From Candidatus Enterousia sp. (lineage in GTDB: Bacteria; Pseudomonadota; Alphaproteobacteria; Rs-D84): a stretch of 64,000 nt of DNA. The position numbers and the translations under genes are program-made. The notes under the pieces were generated by a model. The model had not been told where the DNA came from. It searched no databases and saw only the letters and a program-made list of their open reading frames with translations. Positions 34,065 to 52,874 of the stretch are shown here, in pieces. The stretch is from contig JAZNVR010000020.1 in the NCBI GenBank assembly GCA_045592905.1, positions 3,471 through 67,470 of the forward strand, in the 5' to 3' direction. Position 1 is the stretch's first letter, and each line of letters begins with the position of its first letter.

Positions 34065-34904
34065 ATGACACAAGATTTTATATTACACACCCATACAATC
34101 GGATTTGATGGTAAAAATCATGAACAAGAAATGATAAATGCCGCAAAACAACATGGCATAAAAACAATCGGATTTTCTAATCACTTTATTGTACATCCTG
34201 ATATTTATAAAACTGATTTTTATCCACATGCAGTACTGGGTGGATACGGACGTATGTATAACAAAGACTTTACAACAGCCATTAATAAATTCTTGGAACA
34301 TTATAATACATTAGACGAAATGAATATAAAATACAGCCCATATAATATAAAAGTATTACATGGTATGGAACTGGACTTGTTTAATAACAGACGTTGGTAT
34401 AATGGATATGCACATGCAATAAAAAAATTGAATCCTGATTATGTTATTGGGGCATGCCACTTTATTGAATACGGTGGGAAAGTTTGCAATATACACGATA
34501 TAAAAAAAGCATCCCCAGATATTCAAGATAAAATGATAAAAACATATTGGGAAAAAATTCAATGGATTGCAAAGTCTGGTTTATGTAATTTTATGGCTCA
34601 TCTTGACTTGCCCGCACGTGTAAATCTGGGCGGGGATGAAAAATGGACAGATATAGAACAAAAAACAATTGATATAATTGCAGATTGTAAAATTCCTGTG
34701 GAAATAAATACAGCGTTATACAAGTACAATGGACAACCACACCCTTTGCCACGAATTATGCAAATGTGTGCAGACAAACAAATACCGATGTTTCTATCTG
34801 ATGATGCACATCATGTCAGCCAAATATGCAGAAATTTTGACAATGCAAAAAAATACGCAGATAGTTTTGGAATCAAATTGATTGGATTGGACAAGATAAT
34901 TTAA
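34065..34904 (+). CDS. PHP-domain phosphoesterase (histidinol-phosphatase HisJ-like)
   Basis: LHTHT, GFSNH, GMELD, IGACH, AHLD, EINT, SDDAH. Confidence 0.85.
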   Translation: MTQDFILHTHTIGFDGKNHEQEMINAAKQHGIKTIGFSNHFIVHPDIYKTDFYPHAVLGGYGRMYNKDFTTAINKFLEHYNTLDEMNIKYSPYNIKVLHGMELDLFNNRRWYNGYAHAIKKLNPDYVIGACHFIEYGGKVCNIHDIKKASPDIQDKMIKTYWEKIQWIAKSGLCNFMAHLDLPARVNLGGDEKWTDIEQKTIDIIADCKIPVEINTALYKYNGQPHPLPRIMQMCADKQIPMFLSDDAHHVSQICRNFDNAKKYADSFGIKLIGLDKII

Positions 34905-35812
34905 TCATTTGCACGTGGGTGTGCATTGGCATAAATATTTGTAATTTCTGCCATATTTACCTTGGTGTATAATTGCGTTGTTGACAGGGACGCATGTCCC
35001 AACAATTCTTGCAGACTGCGTAAATCTGCCCCGCCTGCCAATAATGCTGTAGCAAATGTATGACGCAATGCATGTGGTGTTACATAATCTGGCAACTGTA
35101 AATAATGACGCAAGTTTTCAATAACTTTTTGTGCCATACGGGGCGACATCGGCAGACCACGCACACTGCGAAACAGTTCATCCATCGCATCATTTCCAAA
35201 TGGTCGCACATGAATATATCTTTCAATCGCATCCCATACCACAGGTAATACAGGCACCAATCTTTCTTTGTTACCCTTACCAACAATTCTTAGCACTTCT
35301 GGGCGACCACGAACATCCATATTACGCAAAGCCAACGCTTCGGATATACGCAATCCACAACCAAACAACAACACAACCAATGCCCAATCACGTGCCGCCA
35401 ACCATGGTTCACCACCATCAATATCACGAATGGCACCACGCATATGTTCAACATCAATAGGATCAATTGCCTTAGATAACTTTCGTGGAACCTTGGGCGA
35501 AGATATTAACCCAATGGCATCATTTTTTACATTGTAATTGCGTGCCAAGAATTTATAAAAACCACGTAATGATGATAACGCACGTGCCGTTGATTTATGC
35601 GACAGACCACGTCGCTGGCGGTTGGCCAAATACGAACGAAAACATAATGTATCAGGACGCGACATATCTGCAACAAATGGTGGTGTGCCCAAGAATTCCT
35701 GATAAAACGATAAAAAGTCGTGAATATCCGCATCATATGCCGTTGCAGTATGTGACGAATAATTCTTCGTCTGGATTAAATAGTCAATAAATTCAACAAC
35801 AACTTCGTTCAA
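34901..35812 (-). CDS. xerC: Chromosomal tyrosine recombinase XerC
   Basis: S.HT..AY..D, ARALSSLRGF, ARD..L..L.GCGLRISE, GKGNKER, TPHALRHTFAT.LL..GADLRSLQELLGHASLSTTQLY. Confidence 0.9.
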   Translation of the reverse strand: MNEVVVEFIDYLIQTKNYSSHTATAYDADIHDFLSFYQEFLGTPPFVADMSRPDTLCFRSYLANRQRRGLSHKSTARALSSLRGFYKFLARNYNVKNDAIGLISSPKVPRKLSKAIDPIDVEHMRGAIRDIDGGEPWLAARDWALVVLLFGCGLRISEALALRNMDVRGRPEVLRIVGKGNKERLVPVLPVVWDAIERYIHVRPFGNDAMDELFRSVRGLPMSPRMAQKVIENLRHYLQLPDYVTPHALRHTFATALLAGGADLRSLQELLGHASLSTTQLYTKVNMAEITNIYANAHPRAND

Positions 35813-39521: not shown

Positions 39522-39945
39522 TGTTATAATTGAAACATTACCAAATGTTGCGCCAAAACATGTTGCAAGAATTATTGAATTGGTAAAATCTGGTTTCTAT
39601 GACGGATTAACATTTCATCGTGTGATTGATGGTTTTATGGCACAGACTGGTTGCCCATTGGGAAATGGTACCGGTGGCAGTGGTGTTAAAATTCCAGCCG
39701 AGTTTTCAAGTGAACATTTTTCACGTGGCACAGTTGGTATGGCACGTGCATTTGATATCAATTCTGCGGATTCACAGTTCTTTATTTGCTTTGATGATTG
39801 CGGTTTTTTGGATGGGAAATATACAGTTTGGGGACGTGTTGTGTCAGGAATGGAACATGTTGATAATATTAAACGAGGCGACGAATTTGATAACGGCCAT
39901 GTTGAAAACCCAGACAAAATTATAAGGATGGAAGTTATCGATTAA
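39487..39945 (+). CDS. Cyclophilin-type peptidyl-prolyl isomerase
   Basis: APKHV, FYDGLTFHRVIDGFMAQTG.P.G.GTGG, GMARA...NSADSQFFI, YTVWGRV. Confidence 0.95.
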   Translation: MSKIQMTLTNGNVIIETLPNVAPKHVARIIELVKSGFYDGLTFHRVIDGFMAQTGCPLGNGTGGSGVKIPAEFSSEHFSRGTVGMARAFDINSADSQFFICFDDCGFLDGKYTVWGRVVSGMEHVDNIKRGDEFDNGHVENPDKIIRMEVID

Positions 39946-39970
39946 AAAATCCCCCAAACGGGGGATTTTT
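39946..39970. terminator. Bidirectional terminator at the end of the virion module
   Basis: aaaatcccccaaacgggggattttt between convergent genes. Confidence 0.8.
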
Positions 39971-40229
39971 ATTTTATTACTGCACCTTTTATCAAAGTCA
40001 GGTCTTCTTTGATATCGTCAATTTTAATTTGTATTCTGGCAATACCCGTTTCCAAGATTGTCGTTCTGTTTTCTAGGGCGGTTATGCGGGCATCAACACG
40101 TTCCAGTTCCAGAACAGAAAAATCCTGTTTGGCAGCCCAATAAATTACACCTGCAACAAACGCGATTAAAAACCAACTTTCACGCAGGAATTCCAGCAAT
40201 CCATTTACTGGCTTGTGTTGCGATTTCAT
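39969..40229 (-). CDS. Small TM + coiled-coil protein (holin/hemolysin XhlA-like)
   Basis: Hydrophobic WFLIAFVAGVIYW followed by heptads RITALENR...IKEDL. Confidence 0.5.
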   Translation of the reverse strand: MKSQHKPVNGLLEFLRESWFLIAFVAGVIYWAAKQDFSVLELERVDARITALENRTTILETGIARIQIKIDDIKEDLTLIKGAVIK

Positions 40230-40429
40230 GACTTGTCCCCCATGCCCCTGGATACCAGCGTTTCAATTTGATGCACCAAAAAACGCTGTGATTCCAATGA
40301 ACGCAATTCTGAATCTGTGGCGTTTGGACCCAAAACACGTTCAATTGTTGTTTTACGTAAATGTTCCAAAACACGCTGACCAGACACACCAGAAAATGTC
40401 TTGGCATATGCAATTTCTATATCTGTCAT
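40226..40429 (-). CDS. Bbp19-like small phage protein
   Basis: YAKTFSG.SGQRVLEHLR......LGP...LR.LESQR.LV..IE; directly after the portal gene. Confidence 0.7.
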   Translation of the reverse strand: MTDIEIAYAKTFSGVSGQRVLEHLRKTTIERVLGPNATDSELRSLESQRFLVHQIETLVSRGMGDKS

Positions 40430-41661
40430 AACGCACCCCCAAGAACACTTTCAATTGTTGTCATTTGTGCAATTGGTGCAATATATTTTAATTCTGCATC
40501 ACTGTTTAGTTTAATCGGTTCAATCAATCCACGTGATGACAATATTTGCAATCCACGATCACATAACGGTCTGATGAATTCATGCAGCATGCGTCCATAT
40601 GTTGCACCCAAAATTCGCATCATATCTGCGTTGCGTGCCATAATTTCTGTTGCTGTCATTTCTTTCTCGCTTAACAGCCCCAACCTGTCCGCCAACAGTG
40701 CATGACGAATTCTGTCACGCAGATCTTTTAATATAATCTGTGAAACATCAAAGTCAGCCGCACTGTTCAATGGGGTCAGACCAGATGAACCAACAGCCTT
40801 TGGTATAATCGCCCCAGGGGTCAGATTGATATTATTCAGATTTATAACCCCATCATCATCTGCCTGCCAGATGCCAGACACTGCGATTGTTGCGTTTTTA
40901 AGCACCAGTTCAACAACCTTGTTCGCAGTTTTAATATCTGGTAATGCACGCATAATTGGACTGCGACCATATATTTCCCCACTGACCACAGACCAGCGGA
41001 ATATAATATATGGATTGGTTTCAAATATGCCAGTTGATACAATATTGTTTTCAATATCACCACCAACATCCAACCACGCTGTAAATTCTGTGCCAACCAG
41101 GCTTTGTACCAATTTCAATTGCATTTCTGGGTTATTTTTGATTGATTCACGTATATTTGATGGCGGTGTCCATGTTGGATATTGTTCCATAACTTCACGT
41201 GCAGACATTGAAGTCGTATGAAATACAGCATTTGGTAAAACTGCAATATCAGACATCGGAATCGCTGTAAAATTAAATGCAGATGATGTACCAATTGGGT
41301 TTTGTGCCATAAACAAGCATGCTGTTCCCAATGTAACCAAATCCATATAACACTGATGCACAGTTGTATAAAAATTAGAATCGTTTAAATGTGCCCGCAA
41401 AACAGATGTTGCATAATCTGCATCTGGTGATAATTCACTTTCTGGAACCAGTTGCAACCACATTGATTCTGGTGGTGTCAACAATGTATAGATAGACGCA
41501 GCCAAATTATCTGCAGCATCTGATGCAGTGGCATCATACAATGTGGCCAAATCATCATCTGATGTTGGCATTGTATATCTGCGTGCATCATCCCAACGCT
41601 TTAACCATGGGTTGCGTAAATCCAAGGCACGTTTATAAAGTTGCTGTAAGTTATTTTGCAT
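40426..41661 (-). CDS. Portal / head-to-tail connector (T7 gp8/Bbp21-like), compact
   Basis: LYDATA.DA.DNLAA.....LTPP...W, DLVTLGTA, PYIIFRW....GEIYGRSP.MRALPDIKTAN, MTATEI. Confidence 0.88.
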   Translation of the reverse strand: MQNNLQQLYKRALDLRNPWLKRWDDARRYTMPTSDDDLATLYDATASDAADNLAASIYTLLTPPESMWLQLVPESELSPDADYATSVLRAHLNDSNFYTTVHQCYMDLVTLGTACLFMAQNPIGTSSAFNFTAIPMSDIAVLPNAVFHTTSMSAREVMEQYPTWTPPSNIRESIKNNPEMQLKLVQSLVGTEFTAWLDVGGDIENNIVSTGIFETNPYIIFRWSVVSGEIYGRSPIMRALPDIKTANKVVELVLKNATIAVSGIWQADDDGVINLNNINLTPGAIIPKAVGSSGLTPLNSAADFDVSQIILKDLRDRIRHALLADRLGLLSEKEMTATEIMARNADMMRILGATYGRMLHEFIRPLCDRGLQILSSRGLIEPIKLNSDAELKYIAPIAQMTTIESVLGGAL

Positions 41662-41689
41662 TTTTTATCCTTTGTTTTGTGTTATTTTT

Positions 41690-42529
41690 CTAAATCTTGA
41701 AATTTGTGTTTGCATTAAATGTTTTAACGCCATACCCCAATGGCCGAACAGGTATTGGTGTTTGTGCAATCGCACCGGCAACCGCATCCAATCCGTCATC
41801 ATGACCCGCATACGCAACAGGCGACCAACCAATCATTTCTGCAATCAATGGTGTTTTCTGGACACGTATATGTGCGTATAAATGCCCCGTACTTAGAACC
41901 GGTTCAATCGCAGACAATATGCGTTCTGATTTTGCACGATTATTTGCCACACGATTTACATATATGTTGCATCCACGACGCATGGCACAATCACGCATAA
42001 TTTCTGGCAATCCGCCACCAATACCATTTGTTTCAATTGTAATTTTGTTTAATCTATGCTGATACATATAATCAATTATCATGTCGCATTGGCAGGACAA
42101 TGGAAATTGTTCTGAATCAGGCACCGTTAAATACAAAATATCATGAATAAAAACATGTCTATTTTTATCATCACGATATAACAAAACACATGCACTGCCA
42201 TCACGTTTACTGCGACCGGTTGACGGATCCCAATACAACATGCAACCAGAAATTATGTATTCGCCAATTTTGGCTGTTCTGGGTTCAAATTCTTCGTTAT
42301 ACAAATGCAATCCGCCTGGATCAAGTCTGGCACGTTCTGGCGAAATAAATTCTAGCATCATTTGTGCAGAAAAATGTCGTGGCCCAACCGTTTGACGCAT
42401 TTGGTCTATTTTTTCGTGCGGAAACAATTCTGGCCATACCGGTTTTCCGGCATTATCCACGATTGGAATTTTTAATATTTTATATCCTGATAAAAAAGGC
42501 GTTGAAAAAGCATTTTTTTCATATAACAT
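41690..42529 (-). CDS. Terminase large subunit, C-terminal nuclease half
   Basis: Probable start MLYEK at 42529; WPELF, F.AQMM, YWDPS...DGSA, IETNGIG, K..RI..AIEP, HDDGLDA. Confidence 0.82.
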   Translation of the reverse strand: MLYEKNAFSTPFLSGYKILKIPIVDNAGKPVWPELFPHEKIDQMRQTVGPRHFSAQMMLEFISPERARLDPGGLHLYNEEFEPRTAKIGEYIISGCMLYWDPSTGRSKRDGSACVLLYRDDKNRHVFIHDILYLTVPDSEQFPLSCQCDMIIDYMYQHRLNKITIETNGIGGGLPEIMRDCAMRRGCNIYVNRVANNRAKSERILSAIEPVLSTGHLYAHIRVQKTPLIAEMIGWSPVAYAGHDDGLDAVAGAIAQTPIPVRPLGYGVKTFNANTNFKI

Positions 42530-42551
42530 TGAACCAAAGAAGGAATTTGAC

Positions 42552-44117
42552 ATGGACTTTACCCCTAAAACTTTACCTACGAATTTAGAAGCCGAACAGG
42601 CTGTGTTGGCTGCTGTTTTAATGAACAATCGTGCACTAGAAAACGTGTCAGAATTCCTGCGGGCAGAACATTTTTCACATCCTGCACACCAAGAAATATA
42701 TAAACTAGCAAACCGTCAATTTTCAGCCGGCATTCCATTTGATATAATCACTGCAAAAAATTACTTGGATCAACAAGGTGTTCTGGAAACTGTTGGTGGT
42801 GTTGATTACCTGACACAGTTATCTGGTGCTGGTGCAACTGTTGTGAACATTGAACAATATGCAAGAATTGTATACGAACATGCAATGCGACGTAACTTAA
42901 TTGCATTGGGTCAAGATATTACTGACAAGGCATTTATTGAAGATTTAGATAATCCTGTATCACGACAAATTGAAATTGCGGAACAAAAACTGTTTGATAT
43001 GGCAACAATTGGTTCATCTGAACGTGAAGTTACATCTATTAAATCTGCATTAGATGCCGCACTGAAAGAAGTTGAAATCGCATATAAGGCAGATGGTCAA
43101 CTGTCTGGTTTAACAACAGGATTGTCTGCACTGGATAAATCAATCAGTGGGTTGCATAATTCTGACTTAATTATTATTGCTGGACGACCAGCGATGGGAA
43201 AAACCACACTGGCAACGAACATTGCATTTAATGCCGCAAATGCAATTATGTACGGTCGTGCAAATCCAAACTACAAGGGTGTTGTTGCATTTTTTAGTCT
43301 TGAAATGTCATCATCACAATTGGCTGCACGTATATTGTCATCTCAATCCAAGGTACCTGCATCCGCAATGCGTGAAGGGGCTGTAACAGATGAAGATTTT
43401 ATGAAGATGACACAGTATTCCGCTGCAATCAGCAAAATACCATTGTTTATTGATGATACACCCGGAATGTCCGTCCCAATGATTCGCACACGTGCCAGAC
43501 GCTTGGCACGCAAGCATGGCGGAATCGCACTGATTGTAATTGACTATCTGCAATTAATGACATCACCTGGTGGCAAAAAAAGCGATAATCGTGTCCAAGA
43601 AATTTCTGAAATAACACGTGGTCTGAAAATGCTGGCCAAAGACTTAAATGTTCCTGTTATCGCATTGTCCCAGTTATCACGTAGTGTTGAATCACGTGAT
43701 GACAAACGTCCACAATTGGCAGACTTGCGTGAATCAGGTTCTATTGAACAAGATGCTGATATTGTTATGTTCACATATCGTGAAGAATATTATCTGCAAA
43801 ATCGTGACCCATCAGAAAGAATGTCTAATACAACAAACAACGCAATGGTTGAAAGTTGGCAAAAACGTTTAGAACGTGCACGTGGCAAAGCAGATATTAT
43901 CATTGGCAAAAACCGACATGGTCGCCCAGAAACCGTACGAACAGCGTTCTTTGGCGATTACAGTCTGTTTGACAATCTGGATGAATTCCAAGCACGTGGC
44001 GAAAATGAATTCGCACAGCCTGCACCAACTGTTTCTGCGTCAACGTTTGCACCAAATCCTGACACAATGCCAACAGCGATTGACCCAGATGAAATACCAG
44101 ACGATATTCTAATGTAA
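42552..44117 (+). CDS. dnaB: Replicative DNA helicase
   Basis: P.NLEAEQAVL, AGRPAMGKT, FSLEMS, IDYLQL, LSQLSR.VESR.DKRPQLADLRESGSIEQDAD, KNRHG. Confidence 0.97.
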   Translation: MDFTPKTLPTNLEAEQAVLAAVLMNNRALENVSEFLRAEHFSHPAHQEIYKLANRQFSAGIPFDIITAKNYLDQQGVLETVGGVDYLTQLSGAGATVVNIEQYARIVYEHAMRRNLIALGQDITDKAFIEDLDNPVSRQIEIAEQKLFDMATIGSSEREVTSIKSALDAALKEVEIAYKADGQLSGLTTGLSALDKSISGLHNSDLIIIAGRPAMGKTTLATNIAFNAANAIMYGRANPNYKGVVAFFSLEMSSSQLAARILSSQSKVPASAMREGAVTDEDFMKMTQYSAAISKIPLFIDDTPGMSVPMIRTRARRLARKHGGIALIVIDYLQLMTSPGGKKSDNRVQEISEITRGLKMLAKDLNVPVIALSQLSRSVESRDDKRPQLADLRESGSIEQDADIVMFTYREEYYLQNRDPSERMSNTTNNAMVESWQKRLERARGKADIIIGKNRHGRPETVRTAFFGDYSLFDNLDEFQARGENEFAQPAPTVSASTFAPNPDTMPTAIDPDEIPDDILM

Positions 44118-44195
44118 TTTTGTATGATTTTACTTGCACATTTTCTAAAAATTGACTAATATTTTGTCAAGAAATAAATTTTTAGGAGCATTGCC

Positions 44196-45203
44196 ATGGC
44201 ACAAGAAGAAATCATTTTTCCAAATAATATACGCAACATTCGGTTGGCGGCTGGTATGAAAATGACTGAATTAGCACGCAGAACTGGATTATCATTATCC
44301 GCAGTATCCAAAATTGAAAAAGGCGTTCGTCGCTTAAACCAAAAACAATTGTTAAATATTTGCAGTATCTTGGGTTGCAAATTATCAGATATATTTATCA
44401 AGGAATCTGACGACGTTGCAAATCAATGGCAAAATGAAATCAAACGCCGTATGACAGATAACGAAGATAACGGTCTGAAAGTATTCGGCAGTGGATTACG
44501 CAAAATCCGCCAAATCAAAGGTAAAACTATCGCACAGGCTGCCAAAGATGCTGGAATGACATTGTCTGTATATCATAAAATAGAAGTTGGACAACGTGAA
44601 ATCTATAAAAATGAAATTGAACCGTTGGCAAAATCATTCGCAATGGGCGTTGAAGATATGTTTCAACAAATCGCAGATTTATATAAATCTGGTGAATTAA
44701 ACAAACATATTAACAAGGTCAAAGAACGTGTCAAATCTGTTTTAATTCCAGGCAGTCCAATATCTGGTATTGACATGCAAGGCAGCGTTTTTGGTGCAAA
44801 ATTATATGACAGTGCACGAAAAAAATTAGTTCCTGTGTTTGGTATGCCTGCTGGAAAGGCAATTGCATTCAAAAAGTCTGACGAAACAATGATTGTCGCA
44901 CCAATCGCACTGGAAGGTCGCAAAGGTGTTTATGCTGTTGTTCCAAACACAAAAAGACTGGGTGGATTTATACCAGAAAAATCATACGTATTTGTTGATG
45001 CATTAACACCCGCAACCCCAGGCGATTTAGCGGTATGTGTTGACCCAGATTTTGATAACTTGAATTCAGAAACAACAACAACCGCACATATCGTAAGTGT
45101 TCGTCAAGATTCCAAAGGCAATTTGTATGGCCATATTGCAGCACCAGAAGAAAAAATTACTGGCAAACTAATGCACAAGGTCATAATGATTGTTACAGAA
45201 TAA
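44196..45203 (+). CDS. Regulator with two XRE HTH domains and a degenerate S24-like C-terminus
   Basis: IRNIR..AGM...ELA..TGLS.SAVSKIEKG and LRKIR......AQAA..AGM..SVY.KIEVG; C-terminal VPVFG..AG...YAV...VFVD...PGD. Confidence 0.8.
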   Translation: MAQEEIIFPNNIRNIRLAAGMKMTELARRTGLSLSAVSKIEKGVRRLNQKQLLNICSILGCKLSDIFIKESDDVANQWQNEIKRRMTDNEDNGLKVFGSGLRKIRQIKGKTIAQAAKDAGMTLSVYHKIEVGQREIYKNEIEPLAKSFAMGVEDMFQQIADLYKSGELNKHINKVKERVKSVLIPGSPISGIDMQGSVFGAKLYDSARKKLVPVFGMPAGKAIAFKKSDETMIVAPIALEGRKGVYAVVPNTKRLGGFIPEKSYVFVDALTPATPGDLAVCVDPDFDNLNSETTTTAHIVSVRQDSKGNLYGHIAAPEEKITGKLMHKVIMIVTE

Positions 45204-45233
45204 ATCACCCTATATGGAGAGAGAGGGTATACC

Positions 45234-45875
45234 ATGAAAGCAAAAATTCGTGCAACCGCACAAAAGTTACTAAATCTGTATCGCCAAGCACATGTAATTG
45301 TTGGTGGCTGGGGTACGGTTAACCCAATCTTTGTTGACGAAGCGGACGATAATGTAATTCATGAAATTCAAGATTTACCAACTGGTAAAATGCTGGTGCG
45401 TCATATTGAAAATCTGCGTAGTGGCAAAACCCCAATGGATTCAATTGAACGTGAATTGTTACCATATGGCGGCATGATGGTTGGCGAAGAAATTACCCCG
45501 ATTAATCTGACAGCAGAACAATGGTCTGAATTAGAATATGGACTTGAAAACTTTGTTCCAAACCAAGAAGGACTTGATGCATTCACTTCATTGGATGTTA
45601 TTAAGCATTTTGGCGAACAATGGCCCGAAATAATTAGTTCTGTTATACAATCAAAAAAACATTTACAAGATAAATGGGCTGCTGTAAAGCATACTTTTAA
45701 CGCATACAGACTGTGGGTATCTGCAAATGAGGTTATATCAAAACCATTAACGGAACGTGTTCGTGCCCAAGTTCAAGCAGATATGCCAGAATACGAAACA
45801 TACTTGCCGATGTTTGGCGATGCAGGTAATAAACTGTTAACAAAATTACGCACATTTATCAGCAGCATTGGTTAA
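45234..45875 (+). CDS. Hypothetical protein
   Basis: 213-aa ORF with GAGGG RBS; its stop overlaps the TerL-N stop in TTAA. Confidence 0.7.
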   Translation: MKAKIRATAQKLLNLYRQAHVIVGGWGTVNPIFVDEADDNVIHEIQDLPTGKMLVRHIENLRSGKTPMDSIERELLPYGGMMVGEEITPINLTAEQWSELEYGLENFVPNQEGLDAFTSLDVIKHFGEQWPEIISSVIQSKKHLQDKWAAVKHTFNAYRLWVSANEVISKPLTERVRAQVQADMPEYETYLPMFGDAGNKLLTKLRTFISSIG

Positions 45876-46477
45876 TCACTTGAATCGGTACGATATATCG
45901 TATCATATGTATGCGGTGTTCCAATATAAATCATTGTTCCCGATGGCGATAAGATAAAATCTAGTTCACGCAACCGTTCTCGCAGACTTTCTCGTTTGAC
46001 AGCAGTGTTTGATGTATTTGGCACTTCTACGTCATCACATATTATTAAATCTGCACGCATACCTGTTATATTTCCATAAACGCCCTGACAAATAACAGAC
46101 GGTTCACGAATACCTATTGGTCTGTTAATTGTTATGCGTCCTGTGGCCCACTCTTTTTTATTTGTTGGAATTAATTCAGAACAAAACGTATGATTTTCCA
46201 AAATATGTTTTATATGTGCTACCATACGGGTTGCCAACGTAGATTCTGCGGACAATATCAATATTCTGGTTTCTGGCCGCAAGTATAAAACACATGCCGC
46301 AAACACACCAACAACCGTAGATTTTCCAGAATGCCGAAACGCCATTAATAAACCACGATGTGGATTATGTGTCCAAACATCAACAAAAAAACGCATTATA
46401 GTACGATGATGTTTGGGTGTTTTTAATCCCAGAATTCTGTTCCATTCATCTAAAAAATTATAAAACTCCGTAATCAT
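45872..46477 (-). CDS. Terminase large subunit, N-terminal ATPase half
   Basis: Walker A MAFRHSGKST, ITGMRAD, Walker B IICDDVE, motif III YIGTPH; ends 12 residues later. Confidence 0.85.
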   Translation of the reverse strand: MITEFYNFLDEWNRILGLKTPKHHRTIMRFFVDVWTHNPHRGLLMAFRHSGKSTVVGVFAACVLYLRPETRILILSAESTLATRMVAHIKHILENHTFCSELIPTNKKEWATGRITINRPIGIREPSVICQGVYGNITGMRADLIICDDVEVPNTSNTAVKRESLRERLRELDFILSPSGTMIYIGTPHTYDTIYRTDSSD

Positions 46478-47009
46478 CGTTATTTTCATTTGGTGCAGGT
46501 TCAGAAACAAATCCGTAATCATTTATCAATACAGGCAACGCATTTTTTAGAACACTGACCAGGTTACGATACAGCCCCAGCACCGCCCCACCGGACAATT
46601 TGTCTTCTATGACCTGTAATGTATAATCCATTTGTTTTTTTATTTCATCATGTTTGTTGACCCATTCTAATAAATCAACATCTATGTTTTGTATGTCTTG
46701 AAATGCAGCCAGCAGAAAATTGAAATCCGAATTCAAGTGTTCTGGATCAATGATTTTTGTTGGCTGATAATCAATTACACGTGACAGTGATATCTGCCGA
46801 AATATATCTATCTTGGTATCAGCAGTTGGTGCAACATCAAAAACGACATTTCCACCAGAAAAATCATCATTTGGTATAATTGAAAAATTTTGATTTTCAC
46901 AATCTATGACATCATCAATAGCAACATGAATATCTGCAATTTGAAAGAAAGGAAAAGAAAACGCAAATTCTGTTGTATTACCATCTGAAACATAAGATAT
47001 TTTATACAT
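46458..47009 (-). CDS. T7 gp17-like tail-fibre N-terminal (adaptor) protein
   Basis: Y.SDGNTTEF.F.FPFF...DI.V, GG.VVF..AP......I.R, LN.DF..L....QD; ends with two DYG motifs. Confidence 0.8.
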   Translation of the reverse strand: MYKISYVSDGNTTEFAFSFPFFQIADIHVAIDDVIDCENQNFSIIPNDDFSGGNVVFDVAPTADTKIDIFRQISLSRVIDYQPTKIIDPEHLNSDFNFLLAAFQDIQNIDVDLLEWVNKHDEIKKQMDYTLQVIEDKLSGGAVLGLYRNLVSVLKNALPVLINDYGFVSEPAPNENNDDYGVL

Positions 47010-47041
47010 ACAATTCCCCCTTGGTTTGATTAGAATAAATA

Positions 47042-47386
47042 TTATCCGACCAAATCATCAAGTCTGGACAATAACGATTTTAATAAATTTGGTTTTTTTA
47101 CATTTGTGTTTTTCAACTTCATTAGATTGCTACGCTTTTTTTCATCATATGGTGCTGATGTTTCTGATTTTAATCTGCGTAGTACTGCACCCTCGCTTAT
47201 ACCACCAGACATTCCAGATGCACCAAATTTTGCACGTTGTGTTGATAAAACTTTATTTATTAAATTCGTTTTTTCTTTTTCATCTTGTGCCATCTGTTCC
47301 AATATTTCTTTACGTTGTGAATTTACATTTTTTTTAGCATCTTTGTAATCCAACAATTCTGTTACATCAGATACAATTTGTCCCAT
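47042..47386 (-). CDS. Virion-associated protein (internal virion protein-like)
   Basis: Coiled N-terminus, QRAKFGASGM..G.S..VL; lies after the tail tube genes. Confidence 0.55.
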   Translation of the reverse strand: MGQIVSDVTELLDYKDAKKNVNSQRKEILEQMAQDEKEKTNLINKVLSTQRAKFGASGMSGGISEGAVLRRLKSETSAPYDEKKRSNLMKLKNTNVKKPNLLKSLLSRLDDLVG

Positions 47387-47406
47387 TTTTTATCCTTTTT
47401 ATTATT

Positions 47407-49119
47407 TTATATCGTATACCAACCATGAACCGTTACAGACAAAATGGTTACAGGATATGGTTCTGAACCATGTATTGTCCACATTGGATTCATCGTATTA
47501 TCTATTGTTCCCAGCAAATTAACAAACACATCGCCATTATATCCGTTACTGGATGCATCATATACTTCGTTCGGTAATGTTATACGATGCTGATTAATGT
47601 ATATAGATTTAGTGTTAATCACACGTGCCACTACTTTTCGTACTTTGATACGACTGGCATTATGTTTTGATGAACGTAATGGCATCCCCGATGCACAAAA
47701 AGCAAAATGATATTGTCCTGCGTCAACCATTGCATTTTTATCAAAGACTTCTAAACAAATTTTGTTATTTCGTATAACAACGACATATGTTTTTTCACCA
47801 GATACCACAACAGAAATAAAACGTCCTTGGGTTTTATATTCAGACCATGCCGAAATTCCCAATGCCGCATTTTGATTTAACACCGCCAATACACCATCAT
47901 TTTTTACGACAAACAATTGACGATTTGTACCGTTATATGCCATATCAATAGGTTCATTCATTAAATGTTTTGACAATGCACACAAATCATTTGCGTTATA
48001 TTTTTCACCCAACTCATCCAAACTAAGTTCACGAATATCACGACCGTTTGCAGACATAAAAACTGTTGCTCCTTCTATCTTTTGTGGTGGCAAATGTCGT
48101 AACAAATAAGAACCAACAGATGTATGCTGTTTCACATCAACAGATGACGGTGTTAACGGTTTATTAGAAATTGCCCATTCACCAGAATTTGTTAATATCT
48201 GCAAATTATCACTGCTGACTAATGTGCGAATCTGTTGACGTTCTTGGGATTGTAATGATATGAATATTGCTTCGTCATCAAGTCCCGTACCAGTATCAAA
48301 ATTTTTGTGTCGTCCAACTTGCGACATCCAAACACCACTGGGCCAACTGGGCGTTCCACCAAACACCAATCTGTCCTGATGAAACGTAATACAAGATGGC
48401 CAACCACGACGATTGCTGAATGCGGACTCATACCATTGTGCAACAGGATTTTCTGGTCTGGTATAAACGCCATTTATATATGCAACAACCTGTGTTGGAC
48501 TGATATATTCTGTAATCAACCATTGATTGTCCAATAAATACAAGCGACTGCCCACACTGTCTGGTGTCCAAAAATTTGTATTCGTTGTAAACGTTGCATA
48601 ATTGTTTCCCTGGGCATTTGTATCAACTGTAATTAATACACCAGATGCATCATCAAATTTTACGAACGGCAAATTAATTGTCATATTTTCATTACCGTCA
48701 AAAATAAATCTGGATAACGAAAATCCTGTATCTGTTTTTTCCAATACATATGGCGGATAATTTGGATGCACAAAAATCATTGTATCAAAGCGTTGTGCAT
48801 ATTGAATATTTTTTACATCATCATACGCCCATGGCGATAACATATCTTTGACACGAATATTATCATGATATATATAAACACGTTGATTCATTAATGCCAA
48901 AACATATTCTTTGCCATCTGCCACAGAAAAAGATATTAATCTGGCATTATCTGGCAATTGATCCACAGTGGTTAGTCCCCATCTGCGTGATAAAGCACCG
49001 CTGGCCATAACGTCCATATTTTCTAGTTTTGACAATCCATTTATTCCATCACGTGCATAAAATTCCGAAGAAACTTCACCTTGTGCAAAAGAATTTTGTG
49101 TTTTTATAAATTCTGCCAT
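47407..49119 (-). CDS. Tail tubular protein B / nozzle (T7 gp12-like)
   Basis: Q.SF..GEVS, G.L.RR.G, YAQ..DT...VHP..PP, GWPS..TFHQDRLVFGG, W.S.VG...NF. Confidence 0.85.
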   Translation of the reverse strand: MAEFIKTQNSFAQGEVSSEFYARDGINGLSKLENMDVMASGALSRRWGLTTVDQLPDNARLISFSVADGKEYVLALMNQRVYIYHDNIRVKDMLSPWAYDDVKNIQYAQRFDTMIFVHPNYPPYVLEKTDTGFSLSRFIFDGNENMTINLPFVKFDDASGVLITVDTNAQGNNYATFTTNTNFWTPDSVGSRLYLLDNQWLITEYISPTQVVAYINGVYTRPENPVAQWYESAFSNRRGWPSCITFHQDRLVFGGTPSWPSGVWMSQVGRHKNFDTGTGLDDEAIFISLQSQERQQIRTLVSSDNLQILTNSGEWAISNKPLTPSSVDVKQHTSVGSYLLRHLPPQKIEGATVFMSANGRDIRELSLDELGEKYNANDLCALSKHLMNEPIDMAYNGTNRQLFVVKNDGVLAVLNQNAALGISAWSEYKTQGRFISVVVSGEKTYVVVIRNNKICLEVFDKNAMVDAGQYHFAFCASGMPLRSSKHNASRIKVRKVVARVINTKSIYINQHRITLPNEVYDASSNGYNGDVFVNLLGTIDNTMNPMWTIHGSEPYPVTILSVTVHGWYTI

Positions 49120-49130
49120 TTTTTCCCCCA

Positions 49131-49649
49131 TTAAAATCGTGCACTAACCAATGAAAAATCAGTTATCCCACCAGATACAGATGTTGTACTGTCTATGTAT
49201 TTAGCGTTTTGCAATTCAGATTCATACAGTGCAACCAATGTACGAAACACAGTATTATCACCCAACAATGGCATGCAAAATTCCATTGCAAGACGTGTTG
49301 CAACCAATTCAGCAAAATAACTGGGGAAACTTTCTGGTGCGGTTTTAACAATCGCAACAATAGAAATATTATCCATATCAGATATAATTTTGTTCCCAAT
49401 AATATTTCCTTGGGATTTTAATACACGTAAAACATTTGATGGCACTAAAAAGTTTCCATCTGTATTTTTTATTAAATCAATTTGCTGTTGTGCAAAATGC
49501 CATGGATGCAATGCCAACAGTGAATTAACAATCGTATCAAATAATGTACGTGCTAATTTCGCAGGGGCACTATCATCTGTTAAAGATTGGATTGGCGATT
49601 CCCCTAATTTTAATAATGCCATAGAACACAAATCTATTTTTGTAAGCAT
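49131..49649 (-). CDS. Tail tubular protein A / adaptor (T7 gp11-like)
   Basis: IDLCS.AL.KLGE.PI.S, LL..HPW.FA, FP.YF...V..RLA.E. Confidence 0.82.
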   Translation of the reverse strand: MLTKIDLCSMALLKLGESPIQSLTDDSAPAKLARTLFDTIVNSLLALHPWHFAQQQIDLIKNTDGNFLVPSNVLRVLKSQGNIIGNKIISDMDNISIVAIVKTAPESFPSYFAELVATRLAMEFCMPLLGDNTVFRTLVALYESELQNAKYIDSTTSVSGGITDFSLVSARF

Positions 49650-49726
49650 TTTTATCACCCCTTTATAATATTTTTAGAAAAAAACAGACCGGCAGAAAAC
49701 CGGTCTGTGCAAGATATAAAAGTATA

Positions 49727-49957
49727 TTATGCCAATGCAACAGTAGTTACATTTAATTCTGTAATATTTATTTTCTTAATCGCAGTGTTATCAGATGCAT
49801 TGATTATAATTATATCACCAATATTCATCAGTGTTTTAACATTATTAAAATATCCGTTTGCAGTAATTGTTGACAACGTTTCATCTGCACTGTAATGCCA
49901 CAATGTAAATCCATTTGCATATGCAATAACTGACAAGTTTTTATTTTGAAATGCCAT
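49727..49957 (-). CDS. Small capsid-associated (decoration-like) protein
   Basis: LSVIAYANGFTLWHY...GYFN...GD.I; directly after the capsid gene. Confidence 0.6.
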   Translation of the reverse strand: MAFQNKNLSVIAYANGFTLWHYSADETLSTITANGYFNNVKTLMNIGDIIIINASDNTAIKKINITELNVTTVALA

Positions 49958-50003
49958 GTTTTTTCCTTTTTTTATTTTTATTTGATTTTATTGTATTATT
50001 GAC

Positions 50004-50831
50004 TTATGCAGATTGTGTATCAGAACATTTAACACGTACGATACCATCACCATCAATTAAAACCGCACCCTGGGACATGCTGTTGCTGATAAAGTGTGCA
50101 GCACGTTCACCATGCCAAGAAATATCTGTTTTAACTTCTTGACCGCATGCATGACCGATACTGGATGCATGATAAATAAAGCAGTCACGATTTGTTTCAG
50201 ACACAGGCAAACCATTATACAGAACCCATGTAATTCCCAACCATTTGCGTGCTTCACAACCATTGATTAATGGTGTTTCACTGCCAACATAATCTGCGGA
50301 AACAAATTCATCCATTGACAATAATTCATTCCACTGATGAACACCAACAACAGCAAAGCGACGGCCATCATCTGGCACATCATTTGTGTTTAATACTTCA
50401 ACAGCAGACAATATTAAATCTTTGGTTAATCCAGTTGTATAATCACCAACATTTGCTGTTGCAGTATTCATTGCAGCAACAATTAATTCATCTGTTTTGC
50501 GTCCCAATGCGTATGCACCAGCAGAAGCCACAACACGACGTTCATCAACATTTGTTTTTAATTCATCCAATGCATCAACCCAATCACCTGCGTAATAATC
50601 TTGCAGCAAGCATTCCACAGGTTCATGATTTAAATTCATAACAGGCACAATACCATGACGTGATTTTGTACTGGCGGTGCCACGACCTACTTTTTGGAAC
50701 GTAGTAGATGCACCAACGACGCCAGATTTACTGCGAACAGTTGAACGCAACTTTGTTCCCATTTGTTGATATGCCAAATGCACATCAGCTTCAAATTGTT
50801 TTACAAAAACATTATCTATTGAAATAGACAT
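50004..50831 (-). CDS. Major capsid protein (podovirus type)
   Basis: FVKQFEADVHLAYQ..G.KLR.TV, F.KVG, D.LDELK, A.ALGRK.DE.I, DVPDDG.R. Confidence 0.88.
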   Translation of the reverse strand: MSISIDNVFVKQFEADVHLAYQQMGTKLRSTVRSKSGVVGASTTFQKVGRGTASTKSRHGIVPVMNLNHEPVECLLQDYYAGDWVDALDELKTNVDERRVVASAGAYALGRKTDELIVAAMNTATANVGDYTTGLTKDLILSAVEVLNTNDVPDDGRRFAVVGVHQWNELLSMDEFVSADYVGSETPLINGCEARKWLGITWVLYNGLPVSETNRDCFIYHASSIGHACGQEVKTDISWHGERAAHFISNSMSQGAVLIDGDGIVRVKCSDTQSA

Positions 50832-50844
50832 ACAAAAATCCTTT

Positions 50845-51058
50845 TGTTAAAAATTAATTTTACTTATCAGATTTTGTGTTTTGGTTATGCAAATAATGCG
50901 CCAGAAAACAAAAATATTTGGGTCTGCGAAATGCAGATTATCCATAAAAAATATCAGTTAGACTGTGCACAAAATCTAACTGATACTTTTATAAAAAAAA
51001 GGATCTGTGTTTTACCACAGACCCTATAAAGACAAAAACCCCACTATCGCAGGGAATT
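50845..51058 (-). terminator. Series of three terminator-like hairpins upstream of the capsid gene
   Basis: ccctgc-gata-gtgggg+U5; gggtctgtg-gtaaaa-cacagatcc+U8; tatcagttaga..tctaactgata+U6. Confidence 0.65.
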
Positions 51059-51060
51059 TA

Positions 51061-51354
51061 TTATTTCTTTTTTGCACATGCTTTTTTTGCAACTGGTTTT
51101 GCAGCCACTTTTTTAACAGGTGCTTTTTTTGCAACTGGTTTTGCAGCTGGTTTTTTTGCAGGTGCTTTTTTTGCAACTGGTTTTGCAGCCACTTTTTTTG
51201 CAGGTGCTTTTTTTGCAACTGGTTTTGCAGCTGGTTTTTTTGCAGGTGCTTTTTTTCCAACTGGTTTTGCAGCCGCTTTTTTTGCAGGTGCTTTTTTTGC
51301 AGCTGGTTTTGCAGCTGGTTTTTCTGCTACTTTTTTCTTAAAAAAGAAACGCAT
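51061..51354 (-). CDS. Histone H1-like K/A/P-rich DNA-binding protein
   Basis: AGGAG RBS; KKAPAKK(P/V)AAKPVA repeats; own TTTACT-17-TAAAAT promoter. Confidence 0.8.
   Translation of the reverse strand: MRFFFKKKVAEKPAAKPAAKKAPAKKAAAKPVGKKAPAKKPAAKPVAKKAPAKKVAAKPVAKKAPAKKPAAKPVAKKAPVKKVAAKPVAKKACAKKK
51080..51330 (-). repeat. Imperfect ~42-bp coding tandem repeat in the H1-like gene
   Basis: Repeated tttttgcaactggttttgcagc...ttttttgcaggtgc. Confidence 0.85.
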
Positions 51355-51464
51355 TTCTTCTCTCCTATTTTGTTTGAAGATAGAACAAACTTTTTTTGTT
51401 CTTGTTTTATATTTTATATTAAACATAAAATTTAGTAAAGAAGAAAAGTAAAAAAATCATATAT

Positions 51465-52121
51465 TTATGAATATAATTTTTTGAAACCATTTTCAATTTT
51501 TCTGATATATTCTGTATCATTATCACGCCAATATTTTGGATCACGCATCATGCGTCTTAAATCATCATCTGTTAAATTTTGTGTTTCATTTTTATCTGTT
51601 TTTACATTTGGTTCCATAGATTGCATCATCTTATACACGCTTTGTATTCCCTGGGGTGTAGAGCACAGTTCATTAAATGCATCATGTGGTAAAAATTTTT
51701 CACCGAATGCATTAATTGCATTTAATGCGTCCTTCATTTTTTCTGTTCCGCCAAAGAAATTTTTCAATTCATTTATTGCACCTGTTTCATTTTTCACAGA
51801 AAACAAATCAGATATAACTGGCGACAAAAAATTATTTGCGATGTCATAAATTTTTTCTACTTGTGATTTTGTTAATCCGATTTTCAAGAATTGTTCACGC
51901 AGATTTTCATCATCATACAAATCATTTTTTGGATAATCATCTGCACAATCTGGCACACCGATTGCCCGATTAAATTTTCTTTTTGCATCATCATCTGAAT
52001 TTTCTGTTGGCACAGAAATCATTGTTCCGATTTTTTTCTCTAATTCAGTATATGATTTTATCAAAGAATCAGAATTTAACGTACCATCTTCATTCAGAAA
52101 TTTTTCTGGTATATTATCCAT
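51465..52121 (-). CDS. Capsid assembly scaffolding protein (T7 gp9-like)
   Basis: IPEKF...DG......L.KSY.ELEKK; GVP...DDY; C-terminal LRRMMRDPKYWRD....I..I..GF.KLY. Confidence 0.8.
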   Translation of the reverse strand: MDNIPEKFLNEDGTLNSDSLIKSYTELEKKIGTMISVPTENSDDDAKRKFNRAIGVPDCADDYPKNDLYDDENLREQFLKIGLTKSQVEKIYDIANNFLSPVISDLFSVKNETGAINELKNFFGGTEKMKDALNAINAFGEKFLPHDAFNELCSTPQGIQSVYKMMQSMEPNVKTDKNETQNLTDDDLRRMMRDPKYWRDNDTEYIRKIENGFKKLYS

Positions 52122-52311
52122 TGTTTTTTCCTTTTGTTTCATTTGATTTACGCAAGAAATAAATCCCCCCCAATGTAAAGACTGTTTGCAACATAGTAAA
52201 CACATCTGTATCACCAACCAAGTACGCTGCCACAGCAGAAAGTATCCCTGTTCCAGAAATTATATACGTACGATATCCGGTCAGATATCCGCCCTTGAAA
52301 AACTTTTGCAT
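52114..52311 (-). CDS. Holin-like small 2-TM protein
   Basis: L.GYRTYII....ILSAVAAYLVG...TLGGIYFLR plus basic tail. Confidence 0.6.
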   Translation of the reverse strand: MQKFFKGGYLTGYRTYIISGTGILSAVAAYLVGDTDVFTMLQTVFTLGGIYFLRKSNETKGKNNG

Positions 52312-52331
52312 TAAAACACCTTTTTTAAGTA

Positions 52332-52742
52332 TTACAGATAGAACAGAAAACCATCTATATCTGCGATATATCCACGTGCGATGGCCCATTGTGGCATAGT
52401 ATCAGCCGCATGAAATTTTATTGCACCCCGACATGCATCATCCAGTCCCCCCATTAACATACGCTGTGCGACACGCACGCACATTTGGAATTTACGGTTA
52501 TTCGCATTCACATTTAATTTTTGATATTTATCTGATGTTACATTCAGTGCATCAAACACAGATTTATCTGTAATAACATCTGCGATGGCCCGACCTGATT
52601 TATCTGAAATATTTTTTATCATAGAAGTCATTGCTTCCACCAGTGTCAGCGATATTGCATCTGTTTGTGCGTATACGACACGTGCGACTTTATATGCCAG
52701 TGATGCGGACACATCTGGATTTTTTATTATTGTTAATTGCAT
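52332..52742 (-). CDS. SleB/Hydrolase_2-like cell-wall hydrolase, apparently degenerate
   Basis: ARVVYAQT (canonical ART.YxEA), D...GA.KFHA...P.WA......IDGFLFY. Confidence 0.7.
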   Translation of the reverse strand: MQLTIIKNPDVSASLAYKVARVVYAQTDAISLTLVEAMTSMIKNISDKSGRAIADVITDKSVFDALNVTSDKYQKLNVNANNRKFQMCVRVAQRMLMGGLDDACRGAIKFHAADTMPQWAIARGYIADIDGFLFYL

Positions 52743-52762
52743 ATCTTTAATTGCCTTTTGGT

Positions 52763-52874
52763 AAAAAAAGTCCCTGTGCGGACACACAGGGAATAAAAAA
52801 ACCACACATATCGTGTGGGCACAATCTGTACTGTTTATGTGCAATATAGTATCATATTTTTCATTAAAAGTCAA
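52763..52874 (-). promoter_or_regulatory. Virion operon promoter followed by a two-terminator leader
   Basis: TTGACT-17-TACTAT; ccacac-gatat-gtgtgg+U7; tccctgtg-tgtccg-cacaggga-c-U7. Confidence 0.75.

Follow-up and report, generated by a model that had tools for sequence, protein, structure and literature searches.

A large terminase encoded by two genes in a T7-like cluster found across the alphaproteobacterial order Rs-D84

Introduction

When the two parts of a large terminase are encoded by separate genes, with an essential host gene lying antisense between them, are they the pieces of one interrupted gene, the leftovers of a dead prophage, or the two chains of a packaging enzyme that still works? 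Large terminases have been studied as single-chain motors. The question is raised by a T7-like gene cluster in a stretch of 64,000 nucleotides (the window) from Candidatus Enterousia sp. (contig JAZNVR010000020.1), whose genome of 0.99 Mb is 97% complete and belongs to the order Rs-D84 (Alphaproteobacteria). Passages of PMC12306168 describe this order as gut bacteria with densely coding genomes of less than about 1 Mb. A preliminary description of the window, made from its sequence alone, reported two terminase genes (TerL-N and TerL-C) around an antisense block made up of dnaB, a regulator gene and a hypothetical gene; the open reading frames (ORFs) are as it described them, and all but the hypothetical gene match the expected families. 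Here, comparison of genomes leads us to read the two-gene terminase as an order-wide feature of what appears to be a domesticated T7-type cluster, and the interleaving with dnaB as a later layer specific to the genus. We consider it likely that the cluster is a fixed element resembling a gene transfer agent (GTA), with a two-chain terminase that split once in the ancestor of the order and with the dnaB block arriving later, in Enterousia.

Results

Two genes encode consecutive parts of one terminase

The ATPase and nuclease parts of this terminase do not share one polypeptide, being encoded by two ORFs, each with its own stop and start, which lie 3.3 kb apart in this genome (Table 1). TerL-N, which ends shortly after the residues GTPHT, matches the Pfam family Terminase_6N at 25.6 bits (cut-off 22), and TerL-C matches Terminase-T7_RNaseH-like at 27.7 bits (cut-off 27). 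Since TerL-N covers positions 270-459 of phrog_38 (E 8.7e-43) and TerL-C covers positions 468-704 (E 1e-31), the two are consecutive parts of one terminase profile. Together, they cover phrog_38 270-704 and carry what is found in T7-type terminases (T7 gp19; the solved structures 4bij and 8dgc; phrog_38), i.e., Walker A and B, motif III and an RNase H-like nuclease, the difference being that here two genes encode two chains, with the break after motif III. Identity to phage terminases is about 35% for the N half and 26-30% for the C half.

The full ORF of TerL-C (41690-42628, minus strand, 312 amino acids) begins with a TTG inside dnaB, whereas the start common to its relatives is Met26 of this ORF (ATG, 42553-42551), which gives a protein of 287 amino acids. 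Since this Met is present in every genus member, and the frame upstream of it is the antisense of dnaB codons only, TerL-C most likely starts at 42553.

Both halves were reported to keep their catalytic motifs, and this holds well beyond the window. In 22 N-half sequences, residues G66 K67 S68, D163 D164 E166 and G201 T202 P203 H204 are invariant, giving the patterns GKS, DD.E and GTPH, which we take to be Walker A, Walker B and motif III, respectively. In 23 C-half sequences, D109, E174 and D252/D253/D256 are invariant (patterns WDP, E.NG.G and DD..D), and by their position these acidic residues are the putative catalytic residues of the nuclease. The ratio of nonsynonymous to synonymous substitution (dN/dS), calculated for each half as the preliminary description had suggested, is in the range of purifying selection, with NG86 medians of 0.086 for TerL-N and 0.155 for TerL-C, next to 0.066 for dnaB, 0.073 for portal and 0.146 for birA; across 15 genes of the cluster it is 0.07-0.22, comparable to host genes, and all of these values are rough because dS is large (0.2-3) in most pairs.

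Misassembly is an unlikely source of the split. Of 24 other genomes of the genus, 23 have both halves on a single contig at a distance of 3.2-3.3 kb (genome G018 has them on two contigs), and an identical gene order is present in 17 other genus loci from separate assemblies. Among fetched loci, all 9 from the genus have dnaB, the regulator gene and the hypothetical gene between the halves, as against 0 of 11 others, and the same three genes lie there in all seven further genus loci that cover the place in another collection. In addition, the junction at 45873 is bridged by contigs of two sequencing runs from two studies. At the dnaB/TerL-C junction, none of the contig pieces listed bridges the site (pieces end at 42494-42533), so that the support for this junction comes from the other assemblies only.

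The split is order-wide and older than the insert

We searched 41 genomes from six families of Rs-D84. TerL-N was matched at E<=0.001 in 38 of these, including all 30 genomes that are at least 90% complete, and TerL-C was matched in 36. The TerL-N frame is 202-245 amino acids long in 37 of the 38 matching genomes; the other match, in genome G034, is weak (E 3.9e-6), lies within a frame of 603 amino acids and is probably another terminase. In all six families sampled, the terminase comes as two ORFs, with the break at one and the same loop. Translation of the N half ends 1-24 residues past a TIY motif in 20 of 20 fetched loci, and the C half has a Met shortly before an FL.G motif in 18 of 19, the frame at locus L037 beginning just past the motif. 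A strain-specific split with decay of either half, named in the preliminary description as a finding that would count against it, is thus not what we see: the split is order-wide, the motifs are invariant and dN/dS is 0.09-0.15.

The surroundings of the two halves differ between families. In three of them (f2, f4 and f5), the halves are neighbours separated by 165-335 bp, their frames often differ, and dnaB is not nearby. Family f3 has TerL-N followed by a stretch of 3-7 kb with ftsZ in it, and after this portal and TerL-C. In genome G029 of family f6 (locus L052, contig C64), TerL-N is followed directly by portal, and the tube B and scaffold genes stand after the hydrolase gene. At L040 (genome G026, C22, 12169-14565) and on contig C13 of genome G031, portal and TerL-C occupy one frame of about 798 amino acids with one TAG inside the match.

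The preliminary description supposed that the antisense block had split the terminase, and this part of it does not stand. The dnaB and regulator genes are single-copy and located away from the cluster in five of five genomes checked from other families (for example, in genome G028 dnaB lies about 180 kb from the cluster and adjoins priA). Since the split is present in all six families and the dnaB block lies elsewhere in other families, the block did not split the gene; rather, it appears to have been placed between two already separate genes in the ancestor of the genus. Of the two features whose conservation in relatives the preliminary description proposed to check, only the split is conserved across the order, the insert being confined to the genus. 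Orthologues of the regulator are 33-40% identical in all five of these other-family genomes, and the regulator and a homologue of the hypothetical gene (hyp213) are adjacent in genomes G026, G027, G035 and G040 of other families, so that the two are an old pair. The hyp213 protein has no Pfam, PHROG or atlas match, and its predicted model (pLDDT, the predicted local distance difference test score, 85.6) has no PDB fold match at E<=0.001.

Outside the order, the terminase is intact. A search of 1.84 billion representative proteins with the N-half profile gave 230 matches at E<=1e-30, the best of which are mostly 450-510 amino acids long; the intact proteins run across the site of the break with a linker of about 10-14 residues. 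One of them (P0014), on a contig of 2.5 Mb, is named as a phage terminase large subunit of Azospirillum thermophilum. Among 401 Alphaproteobacteria drawn, 60 genomes from 49 of 307 genera had a strong match. Four of these genomes are from Rs-D84 and have frames of 202-216 amino acids, whereas 55 of the 56 others have frames of 399-937 amino acids. In the remaining one, G225, the site of the break is occupied by a run of N, and a second, independent split was ruled out there. The TerL-N and TerL-C matches abut in all 16 loci that we examined from outside the order (L074-L089); the capsid gene is present at 53-63% identity in 14 of these and the portal lies within the stretch in 7, with most also showing tube, fibre and hydrolase genes. 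These related clusters, e.g., that of A. thermophilum, share with ours portal, scaffold, capsid, tube A and B, fibre, TerL and hydrolase genes in the same order, and differ in having TerL as one ORF of about 480-650 amino acids, portal first, a full-length fibre and a patchy distribution in at least one family. The fibre of one relative (L079:11246-12325) has 359 amino acids and a collar domain. Upstream of portal in one complete genome (4.6 Mb), nine ORFs were tested over 18 kb; apart from a sigma factor, they matched no phage family, and phage replication genes were not found next to the cluster. An intact-TerL, T7-like cluster present as a single copy in 49 of 307 genera may represent a broader class of podovirus elements, domesticated or defective.

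Two trees were made, for capsid and for TerL-N. All 21 rows from the order group together on one side of a capsid-tree branch (support 98/91), and a TerL-N tree in which the order is one clade is not rejected (approximately unbiased test, p 0.275). These trees are most simply read as one acquisition and one split in the ancestor of the order.

The break falls inside the ATPase domain

Aligned with the solved T7-type terminases 8dgc and 4bij, the N half covers their residues 50-211 (8dgc E 1.4e-22), and a PDB sequence search with the C half gave no match. This places the break after motif III, at about residue 211-216 of T7 gp19, i.e., inside the ATPase domain and not in the linker between ATPase and nuclease. 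The split thus does not separate an ATPase from a nuclease, as had been thought, since the C chain would carry a core strand of the ATPase in addition to the lid and the nuclease.

Structure prediction of the paired halves, a check proposed in the preliminary description, came out in favour of a pair, with an ipSAE of 0.87 in three runs and 0.02 for the best of three controls. The mark used for complexes is reached by 58 of 80 solved complexes and by 2 of 110 mismatched pairs, counts that hold roughly here given the custom alignments. At least 83% of contacts recur between runs, with a partner pLDDT of at least 75, and the predicted interface joins C residues 17-31 to N residues 56-65 (the strand before Walker A) and 199-214. 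We read the score as indicating likeness, not binding. The model fits an arrangement in which a strand contributed by the C chain joins the ATPase sheet beside the Walker A strand; the identity given to the contributed strand comes from the general ASCE (additional strand, catalytic E) fold and not from the model. From this we infer that the two chains would be an obligate pair equal to one TerL protomer, docking by strand complementation. Since the break lies inside the ATPase fold and the C chain is predicted to add a core strand that completes the sheet, the proposal that a two-chain terminase could uncouple cutting from pumping now looks unlikely.

Junctions of the block and a candidate dnaB promoter

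The dnaB gene in the block, described as essential, is the only DnaB_C match in the whole 97%-complete genome. The junctions of the block were reported to be tightly interlocked, and we find them to be so. At 45872-45875, the stop codons of hyp213 and TerL-N overlap in TTAA, as read directly from the sequence; they overlap by 2 nt in 11 of 17 genus loci and lie 0-10 nt apart in five more, with L044 having ORFs that overlap by 64 bases. At the other end, the start codons of dnaB and TerL-C overlap in CATG (42551-42554) in 18 of 18 genus loci.

The preliminary description also placed a likely dnaB promoter inside the start of TerL-C, and comparison with relatives lends this support. As a bare pattern, TTGAAA-16-TAACAT occurs at chance level (58 such sites in comparison with 63 +/- 9 in shuffled sequence). 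In the 18 loci, however, TTGAA and the T, A and final T of the second hexamer are invariant, including at wobble positions in TerL-C codons where the encoded amino acid varies. The entropy at third codon positions over TerL-C codons ~6-25 is 0.36-0.71 bit, in comparison with a mean of 1.29 for the gene, and these are the lowest windows of the gene. This low synonymous variation supports a constraint at the level of DNA or RNA, which fits a dnaB promoter and leader and to which the translation start of TerL-C itself could contribute. On this evidence, dnaB is probably transcribed from a promoter within the first ~25 codons of TerL-C.

Gene content of the cluster and neighbouring genes

The cluster occupies about 13 kb of the minus strand (39969-52874) and is flanked by host birA and a cyclophilin-like gene (Table 1). 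No DNA polymerase, RNA polymerase or primase was recognised among the ORFs scanned in the area of the cluster. Of two tyrosine recombinase matches in the genome, one lies in the window about 4 kb from the end of the cluster (34901-35812, minus strand) and is probably XerC or XerD. The capsid is 66-73% identical across the families of the order. The best 120 matches in a protein search with the capsid are near relatives only, and a near-identity search of 40000-50000 against 50,697 phage records gave no match. A search of the window with Rfam found only two tRNAs. The HK97-type capsid family (Phage_capsid, PF05065) has no match in the genome.

The ORF between the scaffold and capsid genes is rich in Lys, Ala and Pro, and its product could be a DNA-condensing component of a particle. 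A similar ORF of 145 amino acids with KKPVAKK repeats stands at the same place in L045 (16650-17087), and a terminator-like hairpin (51025-51000) follows the ORF in the window.

Table 1. Features of the T7-like cluster and the inserted block (positions in the window, minus and plus strands as given), with ftsZ loci of other genera
Feature	Position	Strand	Evidence and remarks
TerL-C chain	41690-42553	-	287 aa from the conserved Met; last ATPase core strand (predicted), lid, RNase H-like nuclease; dN/dS 0.15
TerL-N chain	45872-46522	-	216 aa; Walker A, Walker B with catalytic Glu, motif III; dN/dS 0.09
Candidate dnaB promoter (TTGAAA-16-TAACAT)	42502-42529	+	Within the first TerL-C codons; TTGAA and TA...T invariant in 18/18 loci
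dnaB	42552-44117	+	Pfam DnaB and DnaB_C, E 1.8e-99
Regulator, two XRE-type helix-turn-helix (HTH) domains and a C-terminal domain	44196-45203	+	Pfam HTH_3 twice
hyp213, all-helical, 213 aa, partner of the HTH regulator	45234-45875	+	Predicted model, pLDDT 85.6
Cell-wall hydrolase (lysis or virion-associated), first cluster gene	52332-52874	-	Pfam Hydrolase_2 E 1.8e-5, just under cut-off; phrog_938 endolysin E 7e-7; syntenic in genus
T7-type scaffolding protein	51465-52217	-	Pfam Phage_T7_Capsid E 5.6e-9
Histone-H1/HC2-like ORF, Lys/Ala/Pro-rich	51061-51426	-	Pfam HC2 E 9e-5, below cut-off
Major capsid protein	50004-50831	-	Pfam Phage_capsid_2 E 7.5e-71; phrog_3437
Small conserved phage protein	49727-49957	-	phrog_18004; syntenic after capsid in all families
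Terminator-like hairpin after the capsid genes	49684-49708	-	10-bp stem, 6 GC pairs, T run; pattern match
Tail tubular protein A, T7 gp11-like	49131-49658	-	Pfam Tube; phrog_394 E 3e-32
Tail tubular protein B, T7 gp12-like	47407-49131	-	phrog_376 E 9e-91
gp14-like internal virion protein, weak	47042-47386	-	Pfam T7_gp14 E 1.7e-4, below cut-off
Short tail-fibre protein, N-terminal tail-binding domain only	46458-47009	-	183 aa; Pfam Phage_T7_tail E 6e-4; phrog_21412, phrog_1640
Portal, T7 head-to-tail connector	40426-41661	-	Pfam Head-tail_con E 3.8e-82
Bbp19-like small phage protein	40226-40429	-	Pfam Phage_Bbp19 E 4e-9
Membrane/coiled-coil protein, weakly XhlA-like, possible lysis; last cluster gene	39969-40229	-	phrog_1193 E 4e-4; Pfam XhlA E 0.009, below cut-off
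Two-way terminator-like hairpin closing the cluster	39945-39970		Pattern match
ftsZ in other genera	L039:9139-10821		PF00091
ftsZ in other genera	L034:5519-7039		PF00091
ftsZ in other genera	L038:17033-19036		PF00091

In every family, the cluster is interleaved with genes of the cell envelope and cell cycle. For example, other families have between TerL-C and portal an AmiC-like amidase (Amidase_3 and AMIN; L034:7632-8807) and small proteins whose N-termini look pilin-like by eye (L034:8800-9270, L036:11150-12076 and L038:11680-12186), the ORFs of this kind that we tested having no Pfam match. None of 25 Enterousia genomes has a match to the FtsZ/tubulin domain PF00091, which the other genera of Rs-D84 show in 14 of the 16 genomes searched. 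At least 9 of these 14 genomes carry their one ftsZ gene on the contig of the cluster, within a few kb of portal or TerL-C. The absence of matches suggests that the genus Enterousia may divide without FtsZ.

Discussion

We read these findings as a sequence of events in which an intact TerL in the ancestor of the order would have split once into two genes. Once there were two genes, rearrangements could have separated the halves, which are adjacent in three families and have ftsZ and portal between them in a fourth, and in the ancestor of Enterousia a 3.3-kb host block (dnaB, the regulator with two HTH domains and hyp213) would have ended up between them on the opposite strand, with no spacer. 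The two chains would dock and rebuild one ordinary TerL protomer, and the cluster would make DNA-filled particles released by lysis, as a GTA-like element.

The case for a domesticated element is built on order-wide fixation in genome-reduced bacteria, purifying selection acting on structural, packaging and lysis genes, a single copy and the lack of a replication or integration module alongside. The preliminary description held the module to be locked into the core genome, and it does appear to be fixed in the chromosome, with TerL-N in 30 of 30 order genomes that are at least 90% complete and the same place and order in 18 genus loci. This distribution, together with a cluster that holds only structural and lysis genes, is not that of an inducible prophage. 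That the terminase has kept its motifs intact suggests continued DNA packaging, making a GTA-like particle the most likely function, so that the cluster is a candidate podovirus-type GTA. It shares with known GTAs (RcGTA-like, BaGTA and the podovirus-like FpGTA of Faecalibacterium) a phage-derived set of structural and lysis genes without a replication module, as judged from the ORFs scanned, and vertical inheritance (synteny and the 98/91 capsid clade) with purifying selection (dN/dS 0.07-0.22). RcGTA carries an HK97-type siphovirus set, and the cluster described here differs from it in having a T7-type scaffold, tail tube and portal and a two-chain terminase.

Several observations weigh against this reading. 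Neither a small terminase nor ejection proteins of the gp15/gp16 type were recognised among the ORFs scanned. Only 183 amino acids are left of the fibre, whose gene was not found in 5 of the 17 genus loci covering the place (L031, L032, L033, L044 and L045). TerL-C was not found in the 99%-complete genome G029, even with a profile of 23 C halves, and G034 (92% complete) lacks the element. Outside the order, the element is not always fixed, occurring in 5 of 6 genomes of one family and in 4 of 23 of another, and some members of the wider family may be ordinary or defective prophages. Two changes are needed on the TerL-N tree, which taken alone does not recover one clade, and the complex score may reflect memory of the model, since one-chain T7-type terminases (8dgc and 4bij) are solved. 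Some of these points are what would be expected of a decaying prophage remnant, i.e., of terminase pieces and neighbours that are inactive leftovers, with the block having landed in dead DNA: replication genes, an integrase, a small terminase and ejection proteins were not recognised next to the cluster, the fibre gene is shortened or went undetected in some genomes, no TerL-C was found in G029, and the element is patchy in one large-genome family. A remnant would, however, have had to survive in all 30 good genomes of an order whose genomes, as passages of PMC12306168 have it, are of about 1 Mb and densely coding. It would also have had to keep dN/dS at 0.07-0.22 in 15 genes of the cluster, as in host genes, with invariant catalytic motifs and a capsid that is 66-73% identical across families, and we consider it very unlikely. 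Still less credible, in our view, is that the halves are rejoined into one polypeptide or gene by a self-splicing intron, a split intein or excision in producer cells. There is precedent in phages, as excerpts of reports on the Jug jumbo phages (PMC12880540) and Staphylococcus phage Twort (PMC13729910) describe a split terL whose pieces are co-transcribed and restored in the mRNA by group I intron splicing. As in those phages, terL is here spread over more than one ORF, and the 165-335 bp between the adjacent halves of three families is an intron-like size. Unlike in those phages, the halves are separated by opposite-strand host genes (in the genus) or by portal (in another family), a stop and a start of its own belong to each half, and there is no intron match: an intron was rejected for the L034 and L036 spacers (2 of the 5 loci with adjacent halves), where no Rfam intron family was found at E<=1. 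The N half stops a few residues past its motif, the C half has its own conserved Met, and Pfam gave no intein domain match. Excision by boundary repeats was likewise discarded, no direct repeats being found at the two ends of the block, and excision would delete the only dnaB of the genome.

A further alternative, which can co-exist with the fixed GTA-like cluster that we favour, concerns transcription. In this model, read-through of the virion operon would continue through TerL-N antisense to hyp213, the regulator and dnaB, which would supply the mRNA for TerL-C and portal and shut down dnaB in producers, as the preliminary description had suggested in part. Such read-through is possible, since there is no spacer at the 45.9 kb junction and a pattern scan of the window found no terminator-like site there. 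Spacers are in fact absent at both junctions, with CATG in 18 of 18 loci and stops within 10 nt of each other in all but one locus. Moreover, the entropy at third positions in the first 60 codons of dnaB is ordinary (0.9-1.1, in comparison with a mean of 1.15), so that these codons show no sign of a TerL-C promoter just inside dnaB, i.e., no excess of synonymous conservation marking an embedded one. However, such a promoter could sit further into dnaB or show weak conservation. In addition, the halves are adjacent in three other families, and the spacer in G028 holds terminator-like and promoter-like sequence, so that separate transcription of the C half would be normal in the order. On balance, we regard the read-through model as unlikely. 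Its fuller form, in which the cluster is an undescribed T7-type GTA with an obligate two-chain motor and in which the read-through needed for TerL-C and portal makes dnaB antisense RNA that halts replication of the producer, is somewhat more doubtful again.

We know of no GTA in uncultured, genome-reduced gut Alphaproteobacteria. Our search of the literature on Enterousia, Rs-D84 and split terminases found no description of the cluster, and no T7-type or podovirus GTA of Alphaproteobacteria was found. In the text of PMC12306168 that the search covered, the terms phage, terminase and gene transfer agent do not occur.

The most likely reading thus adds a candidate podovirus-type GTA to the biology of uncultured, genome-reduced gut Alphaproteobacteria. 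A naturally broken ATPase core that is kept under selection across an order would be a system in which to study how ATPase core, lid and nuclease communicate, and the interleaving of the cluster, with zero spacer, with the sole dnaB of the genome is a testable case of a possible transcriptional coupling between particle production and replication.

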